From: a virus
DNA length: 64,000 bases
Reading direction: 5' to 3' (one strand)
Virus record (IMG/VR): IMGVR_UViG_3300049483_000112
Coordinates: 3,464 to 67,463 of that record
Both the position numbers and the translations under genes were made by a program. Below, in pieces: positions 15,639 to 35,017 of the stretch. Each line of letters opens with the position of its first letter. The first letter of the stretch is position 1. The notes beneath the pieces are model-generated. The model was not told the origin of the DNA, ran no database searches, and saw nothing but the letters and a program-made list of their open reading frames with translations.

Positions 15639-17156
15639 TTAGCCGTTGGCGATGTTGCGGATCACCGCCAGGGCGAACGTGGCATACACCTGCAGCACGC
15701 CGTCTTGGTAGACGCCGTACTCGTATTTGCGGGTGCGCAGCGGCCATTCGATCTGGTAGTAGTCCCGGCGCATCCGCATCTGCATCACGTTCGTGACGTT
15801 GCTCAGCGGGTAGGGCAGTCGCTGCGTGGTGAACAGGATCGTGCCAGGCGGCATGTTCGGATGTAGGCGCACCCTCAACTCTTGCGCGCTGTCCATCGAG
15901 AACTTGTTCAGGTACGACTTCACCATGATGCCGCCGCCGACCATGCCCTGATCAGCATTGAAGACGAAGCGCTGTGCCGCGGACTGGCCACCCTGCAAGA
16001 TCTTCGCGCCGATGCTGTTCATCTCCTGGCTCGAAACCCACATCGTGTCGGGGCTCAGCCGGTAGTTGTCCCACATCGACTTCAGCACTGCATCGATCTG
16101 CACGACGCCGCCGGAGCCGTCAGCCGTCAGCGCGGTGCCGGTGCCCGCCGTGCCGTTGGCCATCGTCACCTGCGTTGCGCCCAGGCTTGACTGCATCGCC
16201 ATCGTCAGGATGCCGTCGAACGCCAGCGAGTTCCGCGACTTTTCGGCCGCAGTGAGCGCATTGAAGTTCGATTGCCCAGGCGACACCGTCGTCCCGGCAG
16301 CCGCGTCGGTGATCAACACCGAGTTGATGGTTGTGATAGCGCCCAGCGTCAGGTTGCCGGCCGCCGCACCCCAGAACCACGCGTATGCGACCGCACCGTC
16401 CACCGCCGCCACCGTGGCAGAGATGACCGACGTGTTGGAGCTCGCGGCAGTCGTCACGTTGGCTTGCGGGCTCGGGTACGCGCTGCCGCCGTTGATGGTG
16501 TCGGTCGACGAGTCGGCGTTCGTGCGCACGTAGGATTGCACGATGCCGCCGGTCAGCGACGCCAGCATGTACCCTTCGAACGTGAGAGCGACGCAGCCGA
16601 CACCGTAGGACGCGTTGCCAGTCAGGGTCCCGCCGGCATTGGCAGACGACAGGGTCGGCGTTGGCGTGTTGGCCAGCGCGTACTGCGTGTTGCCGCCGAG
16701 GATGACCTTCTCTTCGTTGATCATCATCGCGCGCAGCAGCCCCTCGACGGCCAGCGCCTTGACATCCTCGAAACCTTCGCCGGCGTAGTCGGCCTCGAAG
16801 GTCACGTTGTCTTCAAGGCCCATGCCCTTGTAGGCAGCCGTGTAGTCTTGGGTCGAGGTCGTGATCACCGCGCCACGATTGCCTTGGCTCACGAAGCCGT
16901 TGACTTTCGTGGTGTTCACGCCGGTGACGGCGCGCCAGTTCGCCTGGATGCCACCCTTGCCGCTGACACGAGGGATCTCGTTGCGCAGCGGCGTGATGAC
17001 CGGGTAGAGCTTCTTGGACGGGGCCTCGAGGTCGTAGGCGGTGATGCCGCTGACCGCTGAGCCGCTTTGCGTCCACGACTTTGCCAGTTCCGAGTCCGGC
17101 ATGCCCTGCGCCGCCTTGACGAGCGCGAGGGTTTCCGCAGTGGTTTGTGCGTTCAT
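15639..17156 (-). CDS. Major capsid protein with Ser/Thr/Gly-rich insertion
   Basis: YDLEAPSKKLYPVITPLRNEIPRV, LHPNMPPG, YEYGVY; downstream of protease, followed by terminator. Confidence 0.88.
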   Translation of the reverse strand: MNAQTTAETLALVKAAQGMPDSELAKSWTQSGSAVSGITAYDLEAPSKKLYPVITPLRNEIPRVSGKGGIQANWRAVTGVNTTKVNGFVSQGNRGAVITTSTQDYTAAYKGMGLEDNVTFEADYAGEGFEDVKALAVEGLLRAMMINEEKVILGGNTQYALANTPTPTLSSANAGGTLTGNASYGVGCVALTFEGYMLASLTGGIVQSYVRTNADSSTDTINGGSAYPSPQANVTTAASSNTSVISATVAAVDGAVAYAWFWGAAAGNLTLGAITTINSVLITDAAAGTTVSPGQSNFNALTAAEKSRNSLAFDGILTMAMQSSLGATQVTMANGTAGTGTALTADGSGGVVQIDAVLKSMWDNYRLSPDTMWVSSQEMNSIGAKILQGGQSAAQRFVFNADQGMVGGGIMVKSYLNKFSMDSAQELRVRLHPNMPPGTILFTTQRLPYPLSNVTNVMQMRMRRDYYQIEWPLRTRKYEYGVYQDGVLQVYATFALAVIRNIANG

Positions 17157-17193: not shown

Positions 17194-18321
17194 TCACTTG
17201 CGGAGCGGCTGAGTTACTGTCAGCGGCGCACCGCCATATCGGTGGAGGTTCTTGATGAGCCCTGCGGCCTCGTGCGGATCACCACGGTCGTCGATGATCG
17301 GCTCGGCTTTGTTGAGTTTCGACGCTTCGGTGTCACCACCACCCAAATCGTCGGCCTTTGAAATTGCGCGGAGCATCACGCGCGGCGTCGCCGGCTGTGC
17401 TTCGAGTTTGATGATCTTCGCTGTCGCGTCCTCGAGCGCCTTTTGCAATGGCGCGAGCGCGTCGGCGACGATCTTCTGAAGGGCGGCCTCGTCGAGCTTG
17501 GCAACCGGAGCGTCGACCTTTTCGACCTTCTCGGCTTTCTTGGCCTCATCGGCGCACTCGTCGCCATCTGGCTCGGCCTCTTTGTCCTCTTCATCGGCAG
17601 CCTTGGCATCAGCGGCAGCCTTGGCATCTTCAGCCGCTTTTGCGTCCTTCTTGGACGGCGGCCACGCCTTGATCATCTCGATCACTGCGCCGATGTTCAG
17701 GCCGGCGTCGTTCATCGTCTTGCCCAACAGGGCGACCTCGTCTGCCGTGCCCTCGACCGTCACATCGTCGGGGTCCACATCCTCGACCTTCTCTGCATCA
17801 GCCTCGGGCTGATTCTTGAAGTCGACCTTCTCGACAGCGCCGTCGGCCTTTTGCACTTCGAAGAACTTCGCGCTCGGGATGCACGGCCGATCGACCAGCG
17901 AGATCTCGGTTGGCTTCGCCGTGTAGCGCGTCACGTCTTTGCCATCGGACTTCTCGACAGTCTTCGGGCCGACGTACGACCCGCCGATGGAAAAGCCGGT
18001 GTAGCAGCCCTCGTTGACCTTCTTCCACTCCTGATCGTCCACGATCTTGGCGACCACATCGATCGCCTTGTCGGCGTCATTGAAGTCGATCTGCGTCAGT
18101 TTGCCGGCGGACACCTTGCCGTGCATGGCGCGCACATTGCCCATGCTCTTGCCGCCGGTGTCCTTCGCGATCTCTGCCGACCAGGCCTCGAAGTGTGGCT
18201 TGCTCGACAGATAGTCCATCACCTCGTCCGACTTGTCGACCATCTCTTGCGCCGCCCGACCGAAGACGAGCCGCTTCTCTTCATCGACCTTGGTGATCTG
18301 CGCGAAGATGTTCATCGACAT
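17194..18321 (-). CDS. Prohead protease (XkdF/HK97-like) with scaffold-like C-terminus
   Basis: ITKVDEEKRLVFG, RAMHG, YTGFSIGG, EISLVDRP; charged Ala/Glu/Lys tail. Confidence 0.85.
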   Translation of the reverse strand: MSMNIFAQITKVDEEKRLVFGRAAQEMVDKSDEVMDYLSSKPHFEAWSAEIAKDTGGKSMGNVRAMHGKVSAGKLTQIDFNDADKAIDVVAKIVDDQEWKKVNEGCYTGFSIGGSYVGPKTVEKSDGKDVTRYTAKPTEISLVDRPCIPSAKFFEVQKADGAVEKVDFKNQPEADAEKVEDVDPDDVTVEGTADEVALLGKTMNDAGLNIGAVIEMIKAWPPSKKDAKAAEDAKAAADAKAADEEDKEAEPDGDECADEAKKAEKVEKVDAPVAKLDEAALQKIVADALAPLQKALEDATAKIIKLEAQPATPRVMLRAISKADDLGGGDTEASKLNKAEPIIDDRGDPHEAAGLIKNLHRYGGAPLTVTQPLRK

Positions 18322-18397: not shown

Positions 18398-21300
18398 CTA
18401 CAGGCGCAGCGCCAGGCGCCGCTTCAGGCTCGTCTCGCGCCGCTTTTTCTTCTTCTTGCCCGTGTTGCCGTAAGCCGTGAGCCCGCTGGTCGCGCTTGCC
18501 GATTGCACGAATTCCTTGCGCAGCCCGACGCCGCCTGTGAGCTCAGCGACGGTGCGGCTGACGATCGCTGCCACCTCGTCTGGCGTCAACTCCCCTGCTT
18601 CGCCGACTTGTTGATCCCCTTTACCAAGCCTTGTGCGGCCTGGCGCATGAACGCTTCCATTGAGCCCCCGCCCGTCCACGGAAGCATTTTTCGCTGGGGC
18701 GTCCCCTTTGAATCCGCGGTAGATGGAGTCGGAGATTTTTCCTGCTTCGTGCTGCTGTTCGAGTGCGTCATAGAGCTTCCTTTCCATGTCCTGTTGCGAT
18801 GTGATAGTCCACTTGTCGAGCGACGCTTCTTTCGCGTTCCCGCGCCCGAGGCTATTGTCGACTGCGCGGACCCAGACGTTGCCCGAGCCGTTGTACTTTG
18901 CATAGAGCGCGCGCACGGTTGGCAGTGCGCCGGCGTGCGTCTTGGCGTGCTCTGTGATCGGGACCGTGCGCCCAGTGCCGAACTCTCTTTCCTGCCCTGC
19001 CGCCCGCGGCAGCGCCCCGTTCACGAGGGCGTCGACAGGATCTCGGTGGACATAGAGGATGCCGACCTGGCGGCCCGAGTCCAGCGCCTGCATCACCTTC
19101 TTCTCTGCGCTGCCGAGCGTGTTCATGTTGGTGTCGTAGATGATGTTGGCCCTGGACACCATGTCAGCAAACTCGGGCAACTTCATGCCGGACGACTTAC
19201 CCGCGCCGGTGCCGCCAGCGGTGAAGAGCACGACCGGGTGCATGCCGCCGGGCACCGGCTCAGCCAGCATGCGCGCGTACAACTCCTTGATGAATAGGCT
19301 GGCCGGCTCATGGACGGCAGCGCTTTGCGTGCGGTCGGCGAGATAGTCTGGCGACAACTCGCGCGCGATGTCGGTGTTCAGCACTCGTCCGCCGAGCCCT
19401 GGCGAGTCCTTCTCGGCGAGCGCGTGGTACTCGGCAATCGCCGCCGTGAACGCCTTCTCGTTCGTCACCTTGAACTCGTGCTCCCCCTTGCTGTTGGTGC
19501 CGGTCATCGTCATTCCGAGCTTCTGCGCCAACGCAAACTCGATGGCCGACTGCTTGGCCGTGAGCGTAGATTGCCCTTCAGCCCTGGCAACCACAGCGGC
19601 GCGCGTGCCTTCAGAAGCGCTGGCGCCACCGCCGGCGTCCGTCCACATGCCATGTGCGTCGCGCGGCTGATCAGGATCGAACCCCTTCAACAGCGCGGAC
19701 AGATTCGTTTTCATGACGCCTCCCTTGTCATCGATGCCGAGGCGCATGCGAATCACCGAGCCGAGCATGCGCAATGACTCGACCTCGTCGTTCGTCGGCT
19801 CGCGCGGCGGGCCAATATCGAAGCCGAGCAGTTCGTTGATGTTGATGAACTTTCCGACCTTGCCTTCCACCCAATCTGCGAAGCGTCGCGCGCCGTCGCT
19901 CGAACTCTTTGGCGTCGACTTCGCGCCAAGGTGCGTGTACAGGTTCTGCTCGTGAAACCACAGGCCCGCCTGAACTTGTGACGCCTTCAGGCCGGTCCTC
20001 GATGCCACCTCGTTGATCAGCGCCTTTGATGCGCGCCGCATAGGAGCGGTCGGGCCGCTGATGGCGACCATCTTCCCGTTCTTGTCCTTCACCGAGGCCT
20101 GCTTGAAGTACCTCGCGAACGTGCGCGTCATCCACTTGTCGACAACCGGGTCTTCAATCCCGTGCATGTTGCTGATGAAGGGCCCGATCTTTGGCCCGAA
20201 GATGCTCAGCCCGAGTTGTTTCTGGTTCTGCGTCTTCAAGACGAGCTTGCCCTTGCTGCCGAGCAAATCCTTTTCTGCTTCGTGCAACTCTTTGTTCGTG
20301 TGATCGGAGTAAAGCCAGGCCACCGCGCCCGCCTCGCCGAATCTCTCGACAAGCGTGTTCAGCGCGCCCATCCCCTTGGCGACGTATTCGCCGCGGATGG
20401 TCCACAGGCCAACCTTGCCAGTAAAGCCTGGCTCTCCTTGCGGGTTGTACGGTGGCAGCCGCCCAGTGCGTTCGTACTCTCGAAATATCTTCGCGCCCGT
20501 GTTCCAACTGATCATCGGGTCGGTCCCGTTCGCCGTGATGCCGGCCACGACACCGAACAACTGTTGCTTCACCGGTTCCGACAGCGACGGGATGTATTTT
20601 TGCGTGATCTCCATCGCGGTCTTGATGTCGTCGGTGTACCAACGCTTGAAGTCGCCCTTGCCAGTTACCTCTTCGCGCAGCAATTGGTACTTGATCTCCT
20701 CTGTGGCGGTCTGCACTGCATGCTCGAAATTCTTGGCGACTTGTTCCTTCACCTGAAGCGGATCTTTGGGGCTCGCCTCATACGCGACCGGCCCGCCTTC
20801 GCTGAACATGGCAGCGATCTGGTCAACAGACATGCGCTTGCCCTCGTGCGCCGCGCTGTTGCGAATGTTGATCGCGCTGAACTTGCCGGCCATGCCGCTC
20901 GGACCGCCCTCATCTGTCCATCGGCCGAGCTCGTCCCGCTGCTGATCCTCGCGAAACTTTTCGAGCTTCTCGGCGCGCGCACGCCGCAGCCGTGGTGTGC
21001 ACGCTAGCGCTCCGAAGTCGTCGGCCTCTTCGTCGATCTTGCCCAGGCCGGCGCGCACCTTGCGGTAGTCCTTCTCCATGATGGTCAACTCGTTTCTCAT
21101 CGTCTTGCGCTGCGTCGGATCAGGCACGTAGCCGTGGCGTCGATAGAACTCCTCGGCCTTGGGCATCGCAGACAGAAAGACACCCACGCCCTTTGAGGCG
21201 GCCACTTGCTCGACCTCTTTCAACAGGCGCGACCCTTCGCCTTCTTTCAGCGAAAAGAGGTAGTCAACCTCGATGTCGTGTTCGCGCCCAGGCTGCGCTG

Positions 21301-23011
21301 GCGTGTACTGCACGCCGCTGACGATCCGTCCGTTCTCGACGACGAGCTTGTGCTGCGTACCTGCGTCGATGTCCTTTTGCCTATACAGCAGGATCGATTC
21401 CATCAGCCAGTAGGCCGCCTTCTCTTTCGGTGACGCGCCGCGCTCAAGCGCCTCTGCCTGCTGCGCAGAGTACATGTCAATCAGCACATTGCGGTTGCGC
21501 GATGTGACCGGCGTGTCGCCACTCGGTAGCGGCTCGCCATGATGTTCAGTTGAGCCGAGCAGCGTCTCGACAATCGCGTTGCCGCCTTCGTTTGTCCAGC
21601 GCCCATGATCATCGCGGGGCTGTGCGTCGTCGTACTTCGCGACCTGGCCGACCCATAGGTCGTCAGCGATCAACCCCGCCTTGACGGCGTGACGGTACAC
21701 GGGCAGCGTCTTGAAGTGTGCAAGGTTGCGCACCAGACGCATGAACTCTGGCGACTTGTATGGCGGCAGATCCCACGCGGTCTTTGTCCAGTCTGCATCC
21801 GCCTGGTCGGCATCAACGTCGATCGTTTGGTCTGTCTTGCTGAGCGCCTTGCCCATGGCCTCGTCTCTCAACTTGACCTCTGCCTGCGCGTACACGGGCC
21901 ACGGCCTGTCCCATCGGCCGCCAACCGCGTTTGGCGACAGCATGATCGCGTCAGTCTTTCCGCCAAGCACGACGAACTCGGACTCGCTCAGGCACCCGAA
22001 CCCTGTCCTCGGTGTCGACAGGATTCTCGATGCGGGCATCTTCACCAAAAGCACGTTCCCGTAGCCGCCTGCAAAGTCTGCCGCCATGTCCGCGTGCGCC
22101 GAAAACGACGACATCGGGTTCATGGTCACTTTGTAGTAGCCAGGCGGCGCTGGGGATCCTCTTGTTGCAACGATCCCGCGCATCAGCGTCACCTCTTTGA
22201 GCCCGGCTTTCGCAAGATCTGCCTGCGTCTGGCTGTACATCTCGCGCAGGAATGCGCGCGTGCCGGCAATTGCGATCTCCGGTGACGCCGTGATGCGCAT
22301 GTGATCCATCGCCTCTTGAGCCAGCCCGGTTGGGGATATGGGCAACTCTGGGTTCGCCACAGCCGCCGTGTCGCGCACACCCCGCAGGCCGAACTCCTGC
22401 TTCACCATCTCTTGCAGGAAAAGCGACCGCGGGTCGTGATCTGCCGATGTCACAGCCCATGACGACACAAATTGTCGAATGGCATCCTCGCTACGGAGGT
22501 GCAGTTGCTGCTGATCCGCCGGCCCAAGAAACAGGCCCGGCGCAGACTGCATCGGCATTGCAGCCATCAGCGCGCGCCAGTCTGCGTTCTTGACGAGCTC
22601 GTCCTTCAGTCGCAACTGAGATAGCTCTTTTGCTTCTTCGCCCGTCCTGACTCCAGGCCAAGCCGTATAGGCCTCTGCGTCGGCCATGCTCTGCTCTACA
22701 GGACTCCACCCGCCCAGTGCCTCGCTCGGCTTGAAGTCGCTTTGCTCGAATCGAATCGATGCTGCATGCGGCGTGCCGGCGGCCGGATCCGCAGCGCCAG
22801 TCATCTGCTCATCTGACCATCGACCGCGCTCGTCGCGCGCTTGGTTCGGGTCGTACTTGAGCAGTGCGCCGAGATCGATCTTGCCCGTGTAGCCCGAGGC
22901 GTAGATCGCCGTCGCCTGCCGCTCAGCCTGCGCGCGCGTCGGGTAGCACTTCTGATTGCCCCATTGCCAGCCTTGCTCGCCGTTGGGGAGGGTGCAACGT
23001 TGGATCGGCAT
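18398..23011 (-). CDS. Polyvalent head-associated protein: ART + GNAT + HhH/glycosylase-like + zeta-toxin-like kinase
   Basis: VTLMRG..MSSFS..ESEFVVLG (R-S-E ART); LKEGEGSRLL..AEEFYRRHGY (GNAT); GPKIGPF..VVDKWMTR..QVQAGLW; FTAGGTGAGKSS..IYDTN (zeta-like P-loop). Confidence 0.75.
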   Translation of the reverse strand: MPIQRCTLPNGEQGWQWGNQKCYPTRAQAERQATAIYASGYTGKIDLGALLKYDPNQARDERGRWSDEQMTGAADPAAGTPHAASIRFEQSDFKPSEALGGWSPVEQSMADAEAYTAWPGVRTGEEAKELSQLRLKDELVKNADWRALMAAMPMQSAPGLFLGPADQQQLHLRSEDAIRQFVSSWAVTSADHDPRSLFLQEMVKQEFGLRGVRDTAAVANPELPISPTGLAQEAMDHMRITASPEIAIAGTRAFLREMYSQTQADLAKAGLKEVTLMRGIVATRGSPAPPGYYKVTMNPMSSFSAHADMAADFAGGYGNVLLVKMPASRILSTPRTGFGCLSESEFVVLGGKTDAIMLSPNAVGGRWDRPWPVYAQAEVKLRDEAMGKALSKTDQTIDVDADQADADWTKTAWDLPPYKSPEFMRLVRNLAHFKTLPVYRHAVKAGLIADDLWVGQVAKYDDAQPRDDHGRWTNEGGNAIVETLLGSTEHHGEPLPSGDTPVTSRNRNVLIDMYSAQQAEALERGASPKEKAAYWLMESILLYRQKDIDAGTQHKLVVENGRIVSGVQYTPAQPGREHDIEVDYLFSLKEGEGSRLLKEVEQVAASKGVGVFLSAMPKAEEFYRRHGYVPDPTQRKTMRNELTIMEKDYRKVRAGLGKIDEEADDFGALACTPRLRRARAEKLEKFREDQQRDELGRWTDEGGPSGMAGKFSAINIRNSAAHEGKRMSVDQIAAMFSEGGPVAYEASPKDPLQVKEQVAKNFEHAVQTATEEIKYQLLREEVTGKGDFKRWYTDDIKTAMEITQKYIPSLSEPVKQQLFGVVAGITANGTDPMISWNTGAKIFREYERTGRLPPYNPQGEPGFTGKVGLWTIRGEYVAKGMGALNTLVERFGEAGAVAWLYSDHTNKELHEAEKDLLGSKGKLVLKTQNQKQLGLSIFGPKIGPFISNMHGIEDPVVDKWMTRTFARYFKQASVKDKNGKMVAISGPTAPMRRASKALINEVASRTGLKASQVQAGLWFHEQNLYTHLGAKSTPKSSSDGARRFADWVEGKVGKFININELLGFDIGPPREPTNDEVESLRMLGSVIRMRLGIDDKGGVMKTNLSALLKGFDPDQPRDAHGMWTDAGGGASASEGTRAAVVARAEGQSTLTAKQSAIEFALAQKLGMTMTGTNSKGEHEFKVTNEKAFTAAIAEYHALAEKDSPGLGGRVLNTDIARELSPDYLADRTQSAAVHEPASLFIKELYARMLAEPVPGGMHPVVLFTAGGTGAGKSSGMKLPEFADMVSRANIIYDTNMNTLGSAEKKVMQALDSGRQVGILYVHRDPVDALVNGALPRAAGQEREFGTGRTVPITEHAKTHAGALPTVRALYAKYNGSGNVWVRAVDNSLGRGNAKEASLDKWTITSQQDMERKLYDALEQQHEAGKISDSIYRGFKGDAPAKNASVDGRGLNGSVHAPGRTRLGKGDQQVGEAGELTPDEVAAIVSRTVAELTGGVGLRKEFVQSASATSGLTAYGNTGKKKKKRRETSLKRRLALRL

Positions 23012-23014
23012 CGG

Positions 23015-24808
23015 TCACTCCTCGGTGTCCGCATTGTCCGCGCCCCAGTCCTCCTTGCGGAGCACCGGCAAAACGTCGCAGTTGTGCGCAATAATGCCGC
23101 TAGCGCAATACCACCCGTCAACAGTCTGGAAGTTGTAGACATGACCCTCAAAAAATCTCCGCCCAATGCTGACCACCTTGTCGCTGAATATCGCAGCGGG
23201 AAGAGTCTTTTGCAGATCATCCGTCAAACCGGCTGGCCTAGAAACCGCACCTACATGCTTGCGCGCACCTTGGGCATCATTGATCCGCAAAGAAGGATTG
23301 AACGGTGCCGAAGTCCTGAAGTGCGAGCTTTGCATAGCGAACAAACGAGCGGATGGTGGCGTAACGCAATCCCAAGCCAGCGCGCGGCGCAGGTCAAGGC
23401 TGCGCATGCAGCCCCCAACAAGCGCGCCAAGGATTGGTGGCAAGGAAAGAACGCCACACAGCGCGTCAAGCACCTTGCCAAGACGTGGGCGGGGTTTGCG
23501 CATGAGCGTGAGTTCGTGCGCTTTTGCTCCGATGCCGGAGTGTTGGTGAAGCGGTGCTTCCGCATTGGAAAGTACAGGCCTGATTTTCGCATTGATGACA
23601 CACGCCTTCTTGTCGAGGTCTGCGGTAACTATGCCCCCGGCGATAGATACAGAACCGTCCGCCGCGAGCGCATTGAATATCTCCTCCGCTCTGGATGGTC
23701 GATCCTGTTTGTCCTTATAAGGCCAGGGGATCGCGTCGGCCTCGCTGCTGCTGATCACACTATCACCTTGATGGAGTCGATCCGCGGCGACGAACCCGTT
23801 GTCGGTCAGTATTGGGTGATCAGGGGTAACGGTGAGTTCGTTTCCGCTGGCGGTCCTGATGACGACGACTTCCCCTTCGTATAGGCTCCTTGTCGCTGCT
23901 CGCACCTCTGGCCCCCAGACAATAGTGCTAGGCGCCAGACAAAGACAGTTCGGGTGCGCTGGCGGGAAGTCGATCCCCGTGTCGCCGAAGTCGTCCTCAA
24001 GGTCCACAACGCCAGCCTCTGCGGCGTCGTCGCACTCATCAGGCTCTGGATGCGTGTCGGCAAGGATCCATCGCTTGCCCTCGACCTCGCCTGTTGCGCG
24101 CCAACCCTCGACGTTGCCCTGCACGTGCGCGAACGCGAGCTCTGTGCGCGCGATCATGTCAGCGCGCGCGGGCCCGAATGCGCCCAACTCTTCGATTGCG
24201 CTCGACAGGTCATCGGCGCTCATGCCTTCTTCGACGGCGCGACTCAACAGGCCACGCACCGCCTCGTCTGTCGTGTCGGCGTAGTCCTTCATGAGCTCGC
24301 CGCCGCGGTTGGCCGCGTAGAAGACGGCCTCGGCGTCGACTTGATGCACCATCGCTTCAGTAGCGGCGAAGCCTACTTGCTCGAGCCCGGCGCGGCCGGC
24401 CGTCTGATATGCGTCGAGGATCTCGGGGCGCAGGATGCGAATGATCTCCTCGGCCAGGTCGTCGTAGTTGGCGCGAAGGATCTTCATCACTGCGGCGACG
24501 ACATCATCGTCACTTGCCTTGGCGAGCTTTTGCGCGCGCGATCCGTAGGCGGCCGCAGCCTTCGCCGCGATGGCCACGCGGTGCCGACGCAGCGCCTTGC
24601 CGATCCGGCTCGCCACCCTGCCTTCCCGGCGCGCGACGAATCTGCCCACAGCGGTTGTGTGCGGCCGCAGGCGCCCCTTGGCGAGTTGATAGGCCGACTC
24701 CTCCTCTGCCTTCGCCAATTCGAGCGCGCGCGCGATGCCAGGCATGCTGCAGCCGCATGGTGTCCTGACGAAGACAGACCGATTCCCCACCGTGCAACAT
24801 CCTTTCAA
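23015..24808 (-). CDS. MuF / SPP1 gp7-like head morphogenesis protein with intein (start may be downstream, e.g. 24745)
   Basis: RADMIARTELAFA, KRW, ECD, PPAHPNCL-[intein]-CDVLPV. Confidence 0.9.
   Translation of the reverse strand: MKGCCTVGNRSVFVRTPCGCSMPGIARALELAKAEEESAYQLAKGRLRPHTTAVGRFVARREGRVASRIGKALRRHRVAIAAKAAAAYGSRAQKLAKASDDDVVAAVMKILRANYDDLAEEIIRILRPEILDAYQTAGRAGLEQVGFAATEAMVHQVDAEAVFYAANRGGELMKDYADTTDEAVRGLLSRAVEEGMSADDLSSAIEELGAFGPARADMIARTELAFAHVQGNVEGWRATGEVEGKRWILADTHPEPDECDDAAEAGVVDLEDDFGDTGIDFPPAHPNCLCLAPSTIVWGPEVRAATRSLYEGEVVVIRTASGNELTVTPDHPILTDNGFVAADRLHQGDSVISSSEADAIPWPYKDKQDRPSRAEEIFNALAADGSVSIAGGIVTADLDKKACVINAKIRPVLSNAEAPLHQHSGIGAKAHELTLMRKPRPRLGKVLDALCGVLSLPPILGALVGGCMRSLDLRRALAWDCVTPPSARLFAMQSSHFRTSAPFNPSLRINDAQGARKHVGAVSRPAGLTDDLQKTLPAAIFSDKVVSIGRRFFEGHVYNFQTVDGWYCASGIIAHNCDVLPVLRKEDWGADNADTEE
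23081..23941 (-). mobile_element. Intein (287 aa) in MuF
   Basis: Block A CLAPST, block B LTVTPDHPILT, block F GHVYNFQT, terminal AHN with +1 Cys. Excision restores HPNCLC. Confidence 0.9.
23141..23884 (+). CDS. HTH + DUF559/Vsr-like PD-(D/E)xK endonuclease nested antisense inside the intein
   Basis: 247 aa from ATG 23141: EYRSGKSLLQIIRQTGW (HTH-like); HEREF..FRIGKYRPDF..LLVEVCG..ERIEYLLRSGWSILFV. Confidence 0.8.
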   Translation: MTLKKSPPNADHLVAEYRSGKSLLQIIRQTGWPRNRTYMLARTLGIIDPQRRIERCRSPEVRALHSEQTSGWWRNAIPSQRAAQVKAAHAAPNKRAKDWWQGKNATQRVKHLAKTWAGFAHEREFVRFCSDAGVLVKRCFRIGKYRPDFRIDDTRLLVEVCGNYAPGDRYRTVRRERIEYLLRSGWSILFVLIRPGDRVGLAAADHTITLMESIRGDEPVVGQYWVIRGNGEFVSAGGPDDDDFPFV

Positions 24809-24940
24809 AACAAGAGAGCACTTTTGGCAGAAAATTTCACCACTTCAAACCGCAGCATTTATGCGCCAGGCGGCGATAGTGACCACTACCGAAAGGTGCA
24901 ATTTCCTTTCAAAACGAAAGAGCGTTTTTGAAATTTCCTG

Positions 24941-27900
24941 TCACGCGTACATCGCCACCATCTCGATGAAGTCCGCCAGGTCAGGATCGTATAGGGTTGT
25001 GTTGGCCGCAGGCGCCAGCCCGAGCGCCGTCATCGACCCCGTAGGCACGCTGATGACGATCGGCTGCTGCCGCACTGGCGGCCTGATCGGCAGCCTGACG
25101 CGGTGCGCAATCAGCCGAGGGACGATCTGCTCTTCCGCTGGGCGAATGTCGCTGACGATGATGCTCGGGGCGAACCCGGCGAATGCACCATGGCCAGTTT
25201 CAACGCCGATCGGAACGTCGACAGGCTTGGGCCGATAGGTGCGATCGACGATGAAGTCTGGGCGTCGGTTGCCGCGGCCCCAGCCCACGCCGTCCAGGGT
25301 TGGCGGCAATGCCGGCGCAGGCGCTTCTGCAACTTCTTCTTCGCCAGGGACCAGCCCAACAATCGTCATCGACCCCGTGGGCACCTCGATGACGTGATGC
25401 TCGGTGCGCGCGACCGTCGGCGCAAAGCCCGTGAACTGCCCGGTGCCGGTGCCAGGCGTCGCGGTGATGAACTCGCTGATCAGGATCGACGGCGCTAGGC
25501 CTGCGAATGCGCCCGTGCCGGTGTCCGGTTTCACCCCCTGCCCGAGCAGCACCGATGGAGGAAGACCGACGAACGCACCAGACCCAGTCGCAACGCCGGC
25601 GATGACGTGCTCGGTACGCGAGATCGTCGGCTCGAGGCCCGTGAATACGCCAGACCCGAACCCAGGCTGCGCCGTCTTGCCTAGCGCACTGTTGAGCACC
25701 CCAGGGGCGAACCCGCCGAATGCGCCGGCCCCAGTCGGTACCGCAATAATCTGGCCGATCAGGATAGACGGGGCGAGCCCAATGAATGCGCCCGTGCCCG
25801 CGGGCGGAGTGGCCGAGATCAGGTCGCTGACCAGCGCCGTCGGCGCCAAGCCGCTGAACGCGCCAGTGCCAACCGGGACCGGCAAGTTGGTGTTCGTCGC
25901 ACTGCTGACCGAGATCGTTGGCGCCAGGCCTTCGAACGCGCCGCTGCCTACGCCAGGCGCTGCGCTGCGCAGATCCGAAACCGCAATCGATGGAACAAGC
26001 CCGGTGAACGCCCCGGTGCCAAGGCCCGGCCGCGCCAACAGGCCGACAGTGATGATCGGGGCGAACCCAACGAAGGCACCCGAGCCGGCGCCAGGCTGCG
26101 CGATGACATTGAGCAGGGTGCTTGGGGCAATCCCAACGAATGCCCCGCTGCCGGTGGCTGGCTGATAAGTTGACCCGCGCAGAGCAATCGGCAGCAGCCC
26201 GGTGAACGCCCCCGCCCCGACGCCTGGCGTCGCCACCACCCCAGTGAGCAGCGTTGGCGCAAGCCCCGCCGCGGTCAACGAACCAACCCCTGGCCGGAAT
26301 ACATAGCCGGTGATCGCAGCGGGCGCAAAGCCCGACGCAGACAGCGTGCCGGGCCCAGGCTGCGCGATCTTGAGGTCGCTGATGGTTGCGGTAGGGGCAA
26401 GCCCTGCAAACGCTCCTGTGCCCGTTCCTGGCTGCGCGAATGCGCCAACTACGAACGTCGGCGCTAGGCCAGCGAATGCGCCGCTGCCGGCCGGCGGCTG
26501 CGCGATCGCGTTTGTCAGGATCGAAGGCGCAAGTCCGGCGAATGCGCCGGTCCCAGCCCCCGGCTGAGCGACAGTCCCGCGCAGGATGGCCGGCGCGAGT
26601 CCAGCGAATAGGCCGGTCCCGGCGCCAGGCTGCGCAACAGTGCCAACGACCAGAGTCGGAGTAAGACCGGCGAACACCCCTGTGCCGGCACCGGGCTGGA
26701 TGATCGAGTTGATCAGCAGCGACGGGGCGAACCCTGCGAACACGCCAGCGCCGGCAGGCACGGCATAGATCGCACTCGTCAGCAGCGTCGGTGCCAGCCC
26801 TGCGAACACTCCGTTGCCTGTGCCGGGCTGCACGTAGGACTGGATCAGGAGCGACGGCGCGAGCCCGACGAAAGCCCCGTTGCCTGTGCCGGGCTGCTTG
26901 ATCTCTCCGCGCAGCGCCGTCGGAGCAAGGCCTGCGAAAACGCCCGTGCCAGCGCCGGGCTGCGCATACATCTGCACGAACAGCGCTGGCGCAAGCCCGG
27001 CAAATACCCCTGTCCCTGCGCCAGGCTGCGTGATCGTCCCGGCGACAACCGTCGGCGCTGCGCCAGCGAATACCCCGTTGCCCGTGCCGGGCTGTGTGAT
27101 GGTGCCGCGGAGCGCTACCGGTGTTGAGCCAGCGAATACCCCGTTGCCGGTGCCGGGCTGCGCGACTGTTCCGATGATCAGCGTGGGCGCCAACCCAGCG
27201 AACACGCCATTGCCAAGACCGGGCTGCTCTACCTCGCCGCGCACCAATGTCGGCGCAAGGCCCGCGAACACACCGTTACCGGCTCCCGGCTGTTCGACCT
27301 CACCCCTTACCAAAGTCGGCGCGAGCCCCGCGAATACGCCATTGCCCGTACCGGGTTGATCGACTTCGCCGCGCACAAGCGTCGGCGCGATACCGCTGAA
27401 TACGCCATTGCCGGTGCCAGGCTGCTCGACCTCGCCGCGCAGCAGCGTCGGAGCGAGCCCAGCGAAGACGCCGTTGCCCGTGCCTGGCTGTTCGACCTCA
27501 CCACGAAGCAGCGTCGGTGCGAAGCCGCCGAAGACGCCGTTGCCGGCGCCAGGCTGAGTGATGGTGCCGCGCAGCACCGTTGGGGCAAGGCCAGCAAACA
27601 CGCCATTGCCTGTTCCCGGTTGCTCGTACATCTGCTGGAATGCGATCGGCGCCAGTCCAGTGAATGCGCCGGTGCCGTAGCTCGGGCTTGCTGTGACGTT
27701 TGCAGTGACGCCAGCCACCGGGATGGCGAACTGCGTCCACGAGACAAACCAGCCCGTCGACTTCGTCGCCGTCGGAGCGAGCCCGGTTGCGACCGCCGAC
27801 CCAACTGGTACCGCAATCGTCTTGTCTTGCGCGAACGAAACCCACATCTCGCAGCCGTCGCGGCTGCCGCTGAATGTCGGGTTGTAAATCTGCGTCGCAG

Positions 27901-28507
27901 TTGCGCTCACCACCTTGCGCTGGGTGATGATCTGCATGCCGGAGGTGGTCACGCCAACGCCGGCCTTCAGCCCCGCTGACCATGAGCCGTTGGACGTGTC
28001 CGAGTCGTCGGTCGCGGTGTCGTTGCCCTCCCGGCCCATCGCGCCGATCACCATCGTCCCGTTTGTTAGGGACGAGGTTGTGATCGACGGGACGTTCGAT
28101 GTGGCCGTTTCTTGCGCGCCAGTGACGTAGACGACCGAGTAGCCGGCCTCTGGCGTTACTTCATGCAGCGCCCACGCCTTCGCGACTGCGTTGGCGCTGA
28201 TCGTCATGGTGATCGTGTTCGCCGTCGTCAGCGTGCCGACCGCCATGTTGCAGGTGAACGCGCGCATCGCCGCGCCGGCGTTCGCTGCGCCAGGGTCGAT
28301 CAACGAGTTGACGCGCGAAACCCAGGTGTTCCCTACCGAGTCAGTGATCGACGAGTAGGGGTCGGCCCCGTTCGTGCCGCTGTTGTCGTATGCGCAGAAC
28401 AGAACAGCCAGCGAGCCTGCGCTGAAGTTGGACCCAGGCGTGACGACGAGCGTCGTGCTCGACGAGTTGTGTGTGCCTGAACCTCGATCTGCGCCGCTGA
28501 TTGCCAC
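24941..28507 (-). CDS. Long virion fibre-like protein with ~36 tandem 22-aa repeats
   Basis: GTG start with GGAG RBS; N-terminal beta domain, then QPGTGNGVFAGLAPTLLRGEVE-type repeats. Confidence 0.8.
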   Translation of the reverse strand: MAISGADRGSGTHNSSSTTLVVTPGSNFSAGSLAVLFCAYDNSGTNGADPYSSITDSVGNTWVSRVNSLIDPGAANAGAAMRAFTCNMAVGTLTTANTITMTISANAVAKAWALHEVTPEAGYSVVYVTGAQETATSNVPSITTSSLTNGTMVIGAMGREGNDTATDDSDTSNGSWSAGLKAGVGVTTSGMQIITQRKVVSATATQIYNPTFSGSRDGCEMWVSFAQDKTIAVPVGSAVATGLAPTATKSTGWFVSWTQFAIPVAGVTANVTASPSYGTGAFTGLAPIAFQQMYEQPGTGNGVFAGLAPTVLRGTITQPGAGNGVFGGFAPTLLRGEVEQPGTGNGVFAGLAPTLLRGEVEQPGTGNGVFSGIAPTLVRGEVDQPGTGNGVFAGLAPTLVRGEVEQPGAGNGVFAGLAPTLVRGEVEQPGLGNGVFAGLAPTLIIGTVAQPGTGNGVFAGSTPVALRGTITQPGTGNGVFAGAAPTVVAGTITQPGAGTGVFAGLAPALFVQMYAQPGAGTGVFAGLAPTALRGEIKQPGTGNGAFVGLAPSLLIQSYVQPGTGNGVFAGLAPTLLTSAIYAVPAGAGVFAGFAPSLLINSIIQPGAGTGVFAGLTPTLVVGTVAQPGAGTGLFAGLAPAILRGTVAQPGAGTGAFAGLAPSILTNAIAQPPAGSGAFAGLAPTFVVGAFAQPGTGTGAFAGLAPTATISDLKIAQPGPGTLSASGFAPAAITGYVFRPGVGSLTAAGLAPTLLTGVVATPGVGAGAFTGLLPIALRGSTYQPATGSGAFVGIAPSTLLNVIAQPGAGSGAFVGFAPIITVGLLARPGLGTGAFTGLVPSIAVSDLRSAAPGVGSGAFEGLAPTISVSSATNTNLPVPVGTGAFSGLAPTALVSDLISATPPAGTGAFIGLAPSILIGQIIAVPTGAGAFGGFAPGVLNSALGKTAQPGFGSGVFTGLEPTISRTEHVIAGVATGSGAFVGLPPSVLLGQGVKPDTGTGAFAGLAPSILISEFITATPGTGTGQFTGFAPTVARTEHHVIEVPTGSMTIVGLVPGEEEVAEAPAPALPPTLDGVGWGRGNRRPDFIVDRTYRPKPVDVPIGVETGHGAFAGFAPSIIVSDIRPAEEQIVPRLIAHRVRLPIRPPVRQQPIVISVPTGSMTALGLAPAANTTLYDPDLADFIEMVAMYA
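25345..27815 (-). repeat. Degenerate 66-bp coding tandem repeat
   Basis: About 36 units counted in the translation; most similar at ~26800-27620. Confidence 0.9.
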
Positions 28508-29571: not shown

Positions 29572-31881
29572 CTATCCGTTCGCGGCCAAGAAAGCCGTCA
29601 TATCGCTGACGGTGTATTGCAGCGCATCATCGCGGATCACGTGCGCTTGGGTGAAGTAGTGCGCGTACCCGCCAGACGGGATTGGGTTCGCCGCAGAGTT
29701 GTAGCACGCGATCTTCATGTAGACGCCTCCGCCAGAGCATGTGACCCCAGAGATGCGCCCGCCGGGGATCATTGCGCCATTGACCCATAGCTCCGTCCAC
29801 CCGCTGCCGTCTGTCGCAACGTACTCTCGCCCGATCATGTAGACGAAAGAGTTCCGATAGGTCGTCATGCCAGCGATGTTGACCTCGGTGTACGGGTTGT
29901 TTCCGTGATTGCATTCAAACATCAGTTTGTTGTCGCTGGTCCAACTCCGCATCCCAACCTGCATCCCGGCCGTCGGGTTGCTGTTCGTGTGCAAGTCCCA
30001 TAGCAGCATATATTGGCCGCTCGCCCGATCCCACATGAAGTCAGGGATGTAGGTCTCTTCCAAGTACCACACCACAGCGCCGACTGGGAACGATGCAAAC
30101 CCGGACAGGTCGGCTCGTCGCGCGCCGGGCTCTGATGTCTCGGTGTCGTTGCTGTCAATGGCCAGGCGCAAGCACGTGCGCCCGCCCTTTGTCACCTTCC
30201 CGAATCTAAGGTTGGACCCGTCAATCAGCGACGACTGCCCGGCTGTGTAGCCAGATTCTGTGAGCGAGCTCAGGGTGGTCCAGTCCTGCCCATACTGCAC
30301 CGCGCCAGGCATTGAACTAATGGGCTGCGACGCGCGAAAGCTCGCAACCGGCACGATGCTCTGCGCGCTCGCAATTGTGATGATCACGCTGCCGTATGCG
30401 CCGGCGGCGTTGGAGTCAATCGCGCTGATGTTGTACGTCGCCGAGCCGACTGTCCCAGCAACGCCGGACAACGCAGCATTGCCCGAGCTTATCGTCAGGC
30501 CAGGCACTTGAGGGTTGATCTGCGCCGTGTATGGCGGCGCCCCATTGATGAACCGCACAGGGACAATCGGGCTGACCACTTGCCCAGTCGTGAAGGTCAG
30601 CGTCGGCATGTCGACAATTGCTTGGAATGCAGCGTTGGCGGCAGCCGCGGTGACTGTGTACTGTGTGGCCCCTGTGAGGCCAGACGAGACCTCAATCCCT
30701 CCAATGACGGCGCGCTCGACGATCTGCACAATGTCCGGCGGGTTGACGTTGCCGTCAACGTTATATGCGGCATTGGTGCTCGAGTAGCCGGCGATGTTGT
30801 GCGCGCCGTTCACATAGAAGTCCCACGTCCTGCTCGTTGGGGTCACAGGCGTGTTGAATTCGTTCACCCACGTTGCCGCCGTTATCGCGTACGACTGCCC
30901 CTTGTAGATCAACCCGCCCGACACTCCCTGCAGCGTTGGCAGCGATGTGGCATGCGTGCCCACCGTACCGGATATCGTGACCGAGTTCGATGCCGCTCGA
31001 GGAGCAGAGGGAACTCCCAAAGGTGAAATTGCGATCACATCGCCAGTGATCACCTTCCCGTTGTTTGTTGACCCAGGCAAGAACGTGTTTACGGTTGTCG
31101 ATCGAGTGCTTTGCGCGGTGCCGTTCGCATAGAACAAGTACGAGAATGTGCAGCCTCCGATGTTTGCTGTCCCACTGTTGAGCGTCAGCACCTGAGTTGA
31201 CGGCTGCGTGCCTGAAGGCGATATGCTCGGGTCGACGGTAAAGCCGGGCACGTTCCCGGTGACCGGCCCGACAAGCGCGCTCGTCGATGGGCTACCGAGT
31301 GCCCCCGTGACGCTGTCGCGCGGAGTCTGCGTGACAGACAAGTAGAAGGTTATGTCCGCCGCCGATTGATTGTGGGTCGTCGTGATTTCGTTTGGGATCG
31401 GCGCGCGCGGGTTCGATGCGTTTTCGCGATTCCACGTCCACGAGTTTGTGTAGTTGTGTCCTCCGCTCGTGGTCACGTTGCCGGCCACCGCCGTGAGCAC
31501 AAGGCCGACTCCGAGGTTCCCAGTGATGGTCGGTGGGGAAGTTACTACCGGAGCGTTCCCGCCCCCCTGCATGAACGCCGACACGTTGGCGGCGAACTGC
31601 GCCAGCGTCTGCCCGCCCGGCAGCCCCGACACCTTGCCGGCGTCGAGCACGTTCTTCGCTTTCGTCAGGTCGTTGATGTCCGCGGCGGGTGGCAGCCCCG
31701 CCACCGCTGCTTGTGCCGCCGCTACCGATCCAGCAAGCGAACGAATGCCATATCCGATCGTCCCGGCCCCGTACTGAACAGCCTCACTGTATTGCCCTTG
31801 CGCTGTCTCGCGCAGCGCTCTATCGAGCCAACTCAGAGAAAGTGGCGTGCCCTTCGGGCCAAAGGTGTCTGTATATGCCAT
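29572..31881 (-). CDS. Ig-like repeat protein with C-terminal polysaccharide-lyase/ConA-like domain
   Basis: PVVTSPPTITG..VGLVLT and GAPPYT..PGLTISS Ig-like repeats; C-terminal WTELWVNG..YMKIACYN. Confidence 0.65.
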   Translation of the reverse strand: MAYTDTFGPKGTPLSLSWLDRALRETAQGQYSEAVQYGAGTIGYGIRSLAGSVAAAQAAVAGLPPAADINDLTKAKNVLDAGKVSGLPGGQTLAQFAANVSAFMQGGGNAPVVTSPPTITGNLGVGLVLTAVAGNVTTSGGHNYTNSWTWNRENASNPRAPIPNEITTTHNQSAADITFYLSVTQTPRDSVTGALGSPSTSALVGPVTGNVPGFTVDPSISPSGTQPSTQVLTLNSGTANIGGCTFSYLFYANGTAQSTRSTTVNTFLPGSTNNGKVITGDVIAISPLGVPSAPRAASNSVTISGTVGTHATSLPTLQGVSGGLIYKGQSYAITAATWVNEFNTPVTPTSRTWDFYVNGAHNIAGYSSTNAAYNVDGNVNPPDIVQIVERAVIGGIEVSSGLTGATQYTVTAAAANAAFQAIVDMPTLTFTTGQVVSPIVPVRFINGAPPYTAQINPQVPGLTISSGNAALSGVAGTVGSATYNISAIDSNAAGAYGSVIITIASAQSIVPVASFRASQPISSMPGAVQYGQDWTTLSSLTESGYTAGQSSLIDGSNLRFGKVTKGGRTCLRLAIDSNDTETSEPGARRADLSGFASFPVGAVVWYLEETYIPDFMWDRASGQYMLLWDLHTNSNPTAGMQVGMRSWTSDNKLMFECNHGNNPYTEVNIAGMTTYRNSFVYMIGREYVATDGSGWTELWVNGAMIPGGRISGVTCSGGGVYMKIACYNSAANPIPSGGYAHYFTQAHVIRDDALQYTVSDMTAFLAANG

Positions 31882-34619: not shown

Positions 34620-35017
34620 GTTTCACCTCTTCGTAACTTGCGGCGCAGCGCGTTTATGTGGTCCTTGTTCTTGGCCCGATACGCGCGCTGATATTCCCTG
34701 AAGCAGTCGCGATGCCAAAACCCAGTCCCCACTTGCTTCATTTCGTGCATGTTGCTGTGGTTCTTGCACCAGACACACGGCCGGCCATCATAGTCGCCGA
34801 TCGCCTGCATCCCGCGCATTCGAGCATGCAGCAGCATGTGGTATGCCTGATCTGGGCAGATGACCAGATTCGTCGGCACATTGTTGAACCTGTTTTCATC
34901 TACGTGATGAACGACTGCGCCACGCGGCAAAGGGCCGCCCAACGCCTTTTCAGCAACGTGGATGTGCGTCTCACGACGCCTGCCGTTCACCGTCGATCTC
35001 GGATAAATCTGGGGCAT
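34616..35017 (-). CDS. HNH endonuclease
   Basis: HIHVAEKALG..VVHHVDENRFNNVPTNLVIC..YHMLLH; starts inside the portal 3' end. Confidence 0.88.
   Translation of the reverse strand: MPQIYPRSTVNGRRRETHIHVAEKALGGPLPRGAVVHHVDENRFNNVPTNLVICPDQAYHMLLHARMRGMQAIGDYDGRPCVWCKNHSNMHEMKQVGTGFWHRDCFREYQRAYRAKNKDHINALRRKLRRGET

Follow-up and report, generated by a model that had tools for sequence, protein, structure and literature searches.

How does an intein come by a homing endonuclease when the centre of its own reading frame holds no recognised nuclease domain and a complete open reading frame (ORF) lies on the opposite strand? The question is raised by a head morphogenesis gene of the MuF type in a stretch of 64,000 nucleotides (hereafter the window), which covers positions 3,464 to 67,463 of the 67,463-bp virus record IMGVR_UViG_3300049483_000112 of IMG/VR. 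An earlier note, made from the letters of the DNA, had described an intein in this gene with an intact antisense ORF inside it, and had read the two together as a dual-coding mobile element. We followed up this proposal computationally and conclude that the locus is very probably a mobile class-1 intein in a phage MuF gene, with its homing endonuclease encoded by a separate antisense gene that is complementary to it codon by codon. The argument turns on the following features, for which window positions are given.

23015-24808, minus strand: open frame of the MuF ORF, identified as a MuF/SPP1-gp7-type head morphogenesis gene.
23015-24745, minus strand: MuF-like head morphogenesis (minor capsid) gene, encoding a 576-amino-acid precursor from Met 24745; stop codon at 23015-23017.
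23942-24745, minus strand: N-extein, 268 amino acids, ending in ...FPPAHPNCL; aligns with 19 intein-less MuF loci.
23081-23941, minus strand: class-1 intein, 287 amino acids; Cys1 at 23939-23941.
23804-23836, minus strand: intein block B, LTVTPDHPILT.
23123-23146, minus strand: intein block F, GHVYNFQT.
23081-23098, minus strand: intein block G, GIIAHN.
23018-23080, minus strand: C-extein, 21 amino acids (CDVLPVLRKEDWGADNADTEE); supplies, with its first Cys, the second one of HPNCxC.
23141-23884, plus strand: antisense ORF (protein P0001), 247 amino acids and a TAG stop, ATG at 23141; helix-turn-helix (HTH), helical linker and Vsr/DUF559-like domain.
23128-23132, plus strand: GGAAG resembling a Shine-Dalgarno sequence, with 8 nt between it and the antisense ATG downstream; encoded opposite block F codons.

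The MuF ORF matched Pfam Phage_Mu_F (PF04233) over residues 184-290 with 31.6 bits, above the cut-off of 29.6, and it also matched PHROG head and minor-head families, including phrog_15127 'head protein' (E-value 1.8e-30). The database entry for this precursor (P0153) has the same 576 amino acids and the same Met start at 24745. In the MuF domain the H-P-N-C-x-C motif is interrupted by the intein, and the gene reads ...FPPAHPNCL / CLAPSTIVWG...LTVTPDHPILT...EGHVYNFQT...GIIAHN / CDVLPVLRKEDWGADNADTEE. In an alignment with five other MuF inteins, Cys1 of the intein (CLAPSTIVW) falls on their first Cys. Block B shows the T-x-x-H signature (TVTPDHP), with T39, P40 and H42 invariant in 19 aligned inteins, and at the C-terminal junction, GIIAHN / CDV, a His-Asn pair is followed by the +1 Cys, N287 being invariant and H286 nearly so in 19 inteins. 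The sense frame is open without a break over all 287 codons. The intein scored 26.3 bits with TIGR01445 (intein_Nterm), above the cut-off of 24.5, and 32.2 bits with Pfam Intein_splicing (PF14890), under the cut-off of 35.8; no second intein match was found anywhere in the virus record. As read from these alignments the intein carries all class-1 splicing residues, and the Cys1, TxxH and HN/Cys+1 that had been assigned to it are all present between 23081 and 23941.

The antisense ORF, whose extent and overlap with block B had been given correctly to the base, lies wholly within the intein in register 0, so that each of its codons pairs exactly with an intein codon on the other strand. It spans block B, and its start codon falls in block F, where the ATG lies opposite the His codon (CAT) of GHVYNF. 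The five phage loci that were checked likewise have their antisense ATG at the corresponding sense His codon, the sense motif being GHVY or CHVY in four of them, with DCHNTPVY nearby in L003; in Angelicage the codon matching the antisense start would be GTG, as judged by eye. A purine-rich stretch of the GGAG, GAGG or GAGA type precedes the antisense ATG in four of the five loci (L001, L002, L004 and L005), and in the window the GGAAG at 23128-23132 is a putative ribosome-binding site. We also observed that the plus-strand GC (guanine plus cytosine) skew is positive inside the intein (+0.068 and +0.044, 23300-23899) and negative in the flanking minus-strand genes, a pattern that weakly fits a plus-strand gene. 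A scan around the locus gave six terminator-like sites, with 1.8 expected; one of them lies within the ORF (23498-23521, plus strand), and we regard it as due to chance.

Relatives of the antisense protein are numerous. A tblastn search with P0001 found 30 phage records, from phages of Gordonia, Cronobacter, Idiomarinaceae, Pseudomonas, Vibrio and Escherichia, and in all ten loci that were opened the match ran antisense to a coding sequence annotated as head-morphogenesis, MuF or 'minor head protein with inserted intein'. Both frames were open in register 0 in each of the eight loci tested (the window, L001-L005, L007 and L008); in four phages of 47-53% GC, the probability of encountering no stop was 6e-3, 8e-6, 5e-3 and 3e-6 per frame. 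HMMER with P0001 over 1.84 billion representatives returned 776 matches at E<=1e-3, 77 of them at E<=1e-10. The best, P0003, is encoded on a contig of 1183 bp and aligned with a single gap at 49% identity and 69% similarity (E 2e-74). Conservation of the antisense ORF, which the earlier note had put forward as a check, was borne out by these matches and by the antisense position in ten of ten loci. An ORF arising by chance was considered and ruled out by homology (776 representatives), not by the openness of the frame.

P0001 was aligned with 64 of the 150 HMMER matches listed. This 65-sequence alignment contains, near the nuclease C-terminus, a mirror image of block B T-P-(N/D)-H-P. All 65 sequences have V or M at position 226 (RTG, opposite His CAY) and I or V at position 227; at position 229, 64/65 have G, S, R or C (opposite Thr ACN), and R, W or G predominates at positions 225 and 228 (NGG, opposite Pro). 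By this mirror image, all 65 aligned sequences are intein-embedded. Closer relatives were not found: a word-indexed search of predicted proteins with P0001 gave no matches, the ORF of the window itself is absent from a collection of 15 billion proteins, and blastn of 22000-25000 against phages gave no match. At the DNA level, no close relatives of P0001 were found in genome contigs or viral contigs, none via P0003 in viral, metagenome or genome contigs, and none via the two-sequence alignment in viral or metagenome contigs.

Which of the two frames has been preserved in the intein centre could be read from codon positions in a closely related trio of Gordonia Vividuovirus MuF genes, those of Angelicage, Fosterous and Vivi2. 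All three have the MuF-intein antisense Vsr-like frame intact.

L007 2054-2926, plus strand: antisense frame of Angelicage, 291 codons.
L028 1054-1926, plus strand: antisense frame of Fosterous, 291 codons.
L029 1054-1926, plus strand: antisense frame of Vivi2, 291 codons.

Between Angelicage and Fosterous, the differences at sense positions 1/2/3 amounted to 3/2/25 in the N-extein, 1/1/16 in the first 65 intein residues, 49/7/25 in the intein centre (211 codons), 1/1/6 in the last 40 intein residues and 8/7/22 in the C-extein. The same flip was seen in the intein centre of the other two pairs (54/12/34 and 42/11/26). Since the differences flip from sense position 3, the wobble position in the Gordonia intein centre is that of the antisense frame, and amino-acid identity there is higher in the antisense (0.87) than in the sense frame (0.76). 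A second, more distant comparison agreed with this. Cronobacter phage ES2 and Pseudomonas phage vB_Pae align without gaps over 233 codons, and over the central 188 the antisense frame showed 55.9% identity and the sense frame 36.2%, with 70/47/104 differences at antisense positions 1/2/3. In an alignment of six phages, the mean BLOSUM62 score of the intein centre was 0.918 antisense against 0.152 sense, whereas the N-extein, used as a control, behaved in the opposite way (0.613 sense, -0.356 antisense); over the block B overlap the sense score was the higher (2.92 against 2.04). When the six inteins were aligned to favour the sense frame, several poorly aligned central bins of 30 columns scored slightly higher in sense; the best-conserved central bins favoured antisense (columns 120-150, 1.76 against 0.70). 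Taken from the sequences of these relatives, purifying selection on the antisense frame in the intein centre is supported.

The predicted structures of the two products divide the insert in a similar manner. The relevant parts are these.

23189-23275, plus strand: HTH region of the antisense protein, residues 17-45 (HTH_IclR, E 0.015; model helices 10-18, 23-30 and 34-43).
23567-23701, plus strand: nuclease core motifs GKYRPDF (Y145, D148), LLVEVCGNY (E159) and RRERIEYLLRSGWS (R177, G185, W186).
23228-23638, minus strand: 'linker' of the sense-frame intein, residues 102-238; pLDDT (predicted local distance difference test) 29-43, no secondary structure, kept open; mirrors the nuclease gene on the other strand, and the codon-position flip of the relatives falls here.
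23639-23881, both strands: dual-folded stretch of about 80 codons; intein N-lobe residues 21-101 (minus) and nuclease residues 167-247 (plus).

An HTH-like N-terminus and DUF559/Vsr-type motifs had been noticed by eye in the translation. As a single sequence, P0001 stayed below the Pfam cut-offs (MTES_1575, PF18741, E 0.015, 15.8 against 38.2 bits; HTH_IclR, E 0.015; DUF559, PF04480, E 0.036, 14.4 against 20.6 bits). The family profile bore the reading out, matching the PDB sequences 2lvs_A (tandem HTH, E 1.8e-9), 3hrl_A (1.6e-7), 3r3p_A (3e-4) and 1cw0_A (4.5e-3). AlphaFold, given the 65-row alignment, modelled P0001 with a mean pLDDT of 83.7 (142 of the 247 residues at 90 or more) as an HTH of three short helices, then a long helical linker and, at residues 118-238, an alpha/beta domain. 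For this nuclease domain, VIA-align gave 11.4, 2.4 and 112 against 1cw0_A (Vsr), 10.8, 2.5 and 110 against 1vsr (Vsr), 10.7, 1.8 and 89 against 3hrl (a DUF559-like protein) and 10.5, 2.8 and 95 against 3r3p_A (I-Bth0305I). The structural alignment with Vsr extends to model residue 238, and Foldseek gave both Vsr entries and 3r3p a probability of 1.00. These models predict an antisense product that combines an HTH with a Vsr-like nuclease fold.

The sense intein, modelled from 19 rows, had block-mean pLDDT values of 78-97 for residues 1-70, 72-86 for residues 81-100 and 89-96 for residues 251-287. Its centre, already described as lacking LAGLIDADG or HNH motifs, matched nothing in Pfam at E<=1 except for the envelope of the intein model itself. 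Over about 80 codons (23639-23881) the models suggest structural dual coding. The stretch corresponding to this overlap in the Gordonia trio evolves under sense-strand rules, however, so that the nuclease, in its C-terminal part, appears to accommodate whatever the intein imposes. A novel in-frame endonuclease in the sense centre was among the candidates that we rejected; it is contradicted by the codon-position patterns and by the predicted disorder.

With regard to mobility, 19 related MuF loci were recovered from IMG/VR by a search with the N-extein. None of them has an intein at the HPNCxC motif, and none has a nuclease-profile match. The intein has a GC content of 57.1%, against 66.7% in the N-extein and 62% in the window; local GC falls to 0.57-0.59 over 23100-23899, and GC at third codon positions (GC3) is 0.59-0.64 in either intein frame against 0.76-0.87 in five phage genes. 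From this sporadic distribution and atypical composition we infer that the intein was acquired horizontally, and it looks recently imported. Separately, we noticed that other host proteins contain sense-frame relatives of the intein (P0154-P0166) that cover 92-98% of the query, its 'linker' among this; the hosts are Phage_min_cap2 (PF06152), RtcB (PF01139), Terminase_6C (PF17289), PF25310 and MuF fused to an ADP-ribosyltransferase (PF03496). To judge from these sequences, the same module of intein plus antisense gene may have moved between host genes. The description of the locus as a dual-coding mobile element thus finds support in the antisense conservation, the codon-position patterns of relatives, the predicted folds and the sporadic distribution.

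On this basis a course of events can be proposed. The MuF precursor would be made late and then splice itself, the central 137 intein residues serving as a disordered tether only, held free of stop codons. The nuclease would be produced from an antisense transcript of its own, starting at the ATG that complements the block F His codon, with GGAAG 8 nt upstream. It would cut intein-less MuF alleles of co-infecting phages near the site encoding HPNCxC, and repair of the cut would copy the intein in, which is homing.

The active site was examined in the same family alignment. Y145, D148, E159 and R177 are present in 65/65 sequences and E122 in 58/65; P0001 has all five and also retains G185 and W186, and D148 and E159 align with D196 and an additional conserved Glu of I-Bth0305I. 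Several observations nevertheless count against an antisense homing endonuclease that is active in the window. The column of the general-base His (I-Bth0305I H213, Vsr H69; GGxWH) holds P166 in P0001 and His in 34/65 sequences; in 49/65 a His follows the invariant Glu within 10 residues, and in 16/65, P0001 included, none does. The final Asp (I-Bth0305I D222, Vsr D97) falls, in an approximate alignment, in column 174, where P0001 has Arg and the family varies (H13, F13, L9, R8). P0001 thus fails the EDxHD motif and, on the evidence of its sequence, is classed as a Vsr-like endonuclease of the antisense-intein type; its ability to cleave is uncertain because the usual catalytic His is replaced.

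The frame itself gives little independent help. With the two frames in exact antisense register, a stop in either one reads as TTA, CTA or TCA in the other, and since these three codons make up only 0.9% of the codons of neighbouring genes (region GC 62-63%), the chance of meeting no stop over 247 antisense codons is about 0.10 with the codon usage of the neighbours. The openness of the antisense frame of the window is not significant alone, and the case therefore rests on homology and on the relatives. Neither do codon statistics separate the frames, the mean log codon frequency being -4.187 sense and -4.194 antisense and the GC3 0.588 sense and 0.637 antisense. A scan of 22300-24900 for sigma-70-like promoters gave none, with 0.5 expected, the host and its type of promoter not being identified; no RNA sequencing runs covering 22800-24300 are listed, and one DNA run is, perhaps the one from which the record derives. 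The structural models derive from alignments of unequal depth (65 rows against 19). Finally, since no close DNA relative of the window was found, the evidence on strand selection all comes from other lineages of the family. The both-strand comparison of homologous MuF inteins suggested in the earlier note thus yielded antisense selection in the centre of the relatives, and for the lineage of the window a protein comparison only, that of P0001 with P0003.

These points would suit a reading in which the intein is real and the antisense gene of this copy is a retired or repurposed nuclease, perhaps a DNA-binding protein, that is no longer a homing enzyme. Besides the replaced His, the frame that could be open by chance at the GC of the window and the empty promoter scan, this reading can draw on Gosselin, Arsenault and Gogarten (bioRxiv 10.1101/2025.01.02.630785), in whose text antisense ORFs are expected to decay after homing ceases. 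Several findings speak against it: the His-less motif CGNY.PGD.YR is kept in P0003 at the identity and similarity given above, with a single gap; E122, Y145, D148, E159, R177, G185 and W186 are all retained; the fold of P0001 is predicted with confidence; and the intein looks recently imported. We therefore regard a retired nuclease as improbable.

Another way to account for the locus is that the insert is not a functional intein, and that a free-standing Vsr-like endonuclease gene disrupted MuF and left a truncated or inactive head protein. Free-standing Vsr-like endonucleases are known to fracture phage genes (Dassa et al. 2009, PMC2677866). The junctions bear directly on this. The closest intein-less homologue, L009, whose N-extein is 46% identical, reads HPNCICDITPVL at the uninterrupted site. 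The spliced MuF product of the window is predicted as HPNCLCDVLPVL, i.e. HPNCL-CDVLPVL, and the junction was fixed by the agreement between the two at this point; with Phage_Mu_F above its cut-off, the claim that the intein splits the MuF HPNCxC motif stood. Removal of the intein restores HPNCLC, and HPNCxC is present in 18/19 related loci (L022 differs). A restored motif, 287 uninterrupted sense codons with Cys1, TxxH, HN and Cys+1 all in place, a TIGR01445 score above cut-off and confidently folded N and C lobes make a functionless insert very improbable, and plain disruption of MuF was rejected in view of the continuous sense frame, the splicing residues and the HPNCxC restored by excision. 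An alternative start of the intein at CLCLAPST... was likewise rejected; it misaligns block A and gives a product, HPNCDV, that is two residues shorter than L009. That the antisense ORF is a by-product of GC-rich DNA and the true endonuclease is the conserved sense-frame centre would agree with the 62% GC of the window, with the scarcity of TTA, CTA and TCA in the neighbours and with the stronger sense conservation over block B, but is hardly credible, the frame being open in phages of 47-53% GC too (P 3e-6 to 6e-3), the centre being better conserved antisense with wobble at antisense position 3 and the opposite in the extein control, and the sense centre being without a family match and predicted to be disordered.

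The insertion site of the intein, encoded with its antisense endonuclease gene, is itself unusual. When junctions were compared by eye on printed sequences, the intein stood directly after the residue preceding the first Cys in 5/5 phage loci (N^CxC; T^C in KMB36), and the same junction was read in 14 of 17 database MuF or minor-capsid-2 precursors, those with an HP(N/R/Q) motif. The intein of the window follows HPNCL, with the second Cys as its +1 residue, two codons downstream of the usual site. P0001 and P0003 share the His-less CGNY.PGD.YR motif. It is conceivable, although we think it rather unlikely, that the window and P0003 represent a retargeted sublineage, in which the His of GGxWH was exchanged for CGNY.PGD.YR and, in the window, the insertion lies before the second and not the first Cys, with the roughly 80 codons that encode folded parts of both proteins as a further trait. 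If true, it would be a natural shift in the target of a homing endonuclease by two codons, with an altered active site.

The MuF gene is part of a set of structural genes that all lie on the minus strand.

34971-36695, minus strand: portal.
17194-18321, minus strand: protease-like gene.
15639-17156, minus strand: phrog_13692 gene, possibly the capsid gene.

Three large ORFs near the MuF gene were also noted. One of 1537 amino acids (18398-23011, minus strand) begins 4 nt past the MuF stop; it has a Zeta_toxin domain (PF06414) at residues 1286-1373 (E 1.9e-8, above cut-off), no PHROG match and, by eye in the translation, four copies of a D-x-x-Q-x-R-D-x-x-G-x-W-(T/S) motif. Its product is possibly a MuF-linked protein, large and multi-domain, that belongs to the virion or is ejected. 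Immediately upstream of MuF, an ORF of 1188 amino acids (24941-28507, minus strand) is built of repeats of about 22 amino acids (QPGTGNGVFAGLAPTL...). Tandem Repeats Finder reported a 66-nt period with 7.5 copies at 27129-27626 and more arrays besides, and the ORF had no match in Pfam or PHROG. Further away, an ORF of 769 amino acids (29572-31881, minus strand) weakly matched Polysacc_lyase at residues 554-729 (26.9 bits, cut-off 29.9) and may be a tail-associated depolymerase.

As regards the meaning of the locus, it adds an uncultivated example from outside the actinophages to an intein architecture described recently, and, together with its relatives, it shows that the layout is widespread and not peculiar to actinophages, given the 776 representatives and the phages of six host groups, Gordonia included. 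For annotation, it is relevant that gene callers overlook antisense endonuclease genes of this kind. It is also a natural case of complete antisense dual coding, in which the stops of each frame constrain the choice of Leu and Ser codons in the other.

The closest known systems are those of Gosselin et al. 2025 (version of 2025-10-20), whose text reports that full inteins in the minor capsid genes of actinophages carry antisense VSR-like endonucleases, that all minor capsid inteins have non-canonical endonucleases and that the in-frame intein centre is without recognisable structure; a cluster with 'Angelicase' and Affeca is called endonuclease VII-like inteins there, which may concern a further gene of the Gordonia phages compared above or another way of classifying their inteins. 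The window agrees with these inteins in having a contiguous intein in a minor capsid gene, an antisense endonuclease, a structureless sense centre and a remote match to I-Bth0305I (3R3P). Their survey, as the preprint describes it, was of PhagesDB actinophages only, whereas the window comes from an uncultivated viral contig, and beyond actinophages the family also occurs in phages of Cronobacter, Pseudomonas, Idiomarinaceae, Vibrio and Escherichia. In comparison with the inteins described in that text, the ORF of the window begins in block F and continues through block B, the insertion lies before the second Cys of HPNCxC and the usual His is replaced. The architecture is thus already in print, and the window is a further example; because of this it opens no new question, and the shifted insertion site together with the His-less motif might be the only features worth a closer look.

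Older examples of an endonuclease ORF opposite a functional intein are the antisense LAGLIDADG inteins of Synechocystis DnaX and a Chloroflexus SpoVR-like protein (Gorbalenya 1998; Gogarten et al. 2002, as cited in bioRxiv 10.1101/2025.01.02.630785). They share this layout with the window, but the nuclease family is a different one from the Vsr-like family found here, the host genes are others and the genomes are cellular. In the 'fractured genes' of Dassa et al. 2009 (PMC2677866), the halves of a split intein are separated by a free-standing Vsr-like endonuclease gene. These systems and the window have in common N-terminal DNA-binding modules, the association with inteins and a mostly phage origin; there, intein and host gene are each split in two and the nuclease shares no codons with the intein, whereas in the window the intein frame is unbroken and the overlap of the two genes, on opposite strands, is complete. 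I-Bth0305I, an intron-encoded enzyme of known structure (3R3P; Taylor et al. 2011, PMC3239194), is encoded on the sense strand in its intron, unlike P0001, which is antisense within an intein, and the two proteins are 12% identical in sequence. By alignment, its H213 corresponds to a Pro in P0001 and its D222 to a variable column, whereas its E170, D196 and extra Glu have their equivalents in E122, D148 and E159 of P0001, and in both proteins the DNA-binding region is N-terminal.

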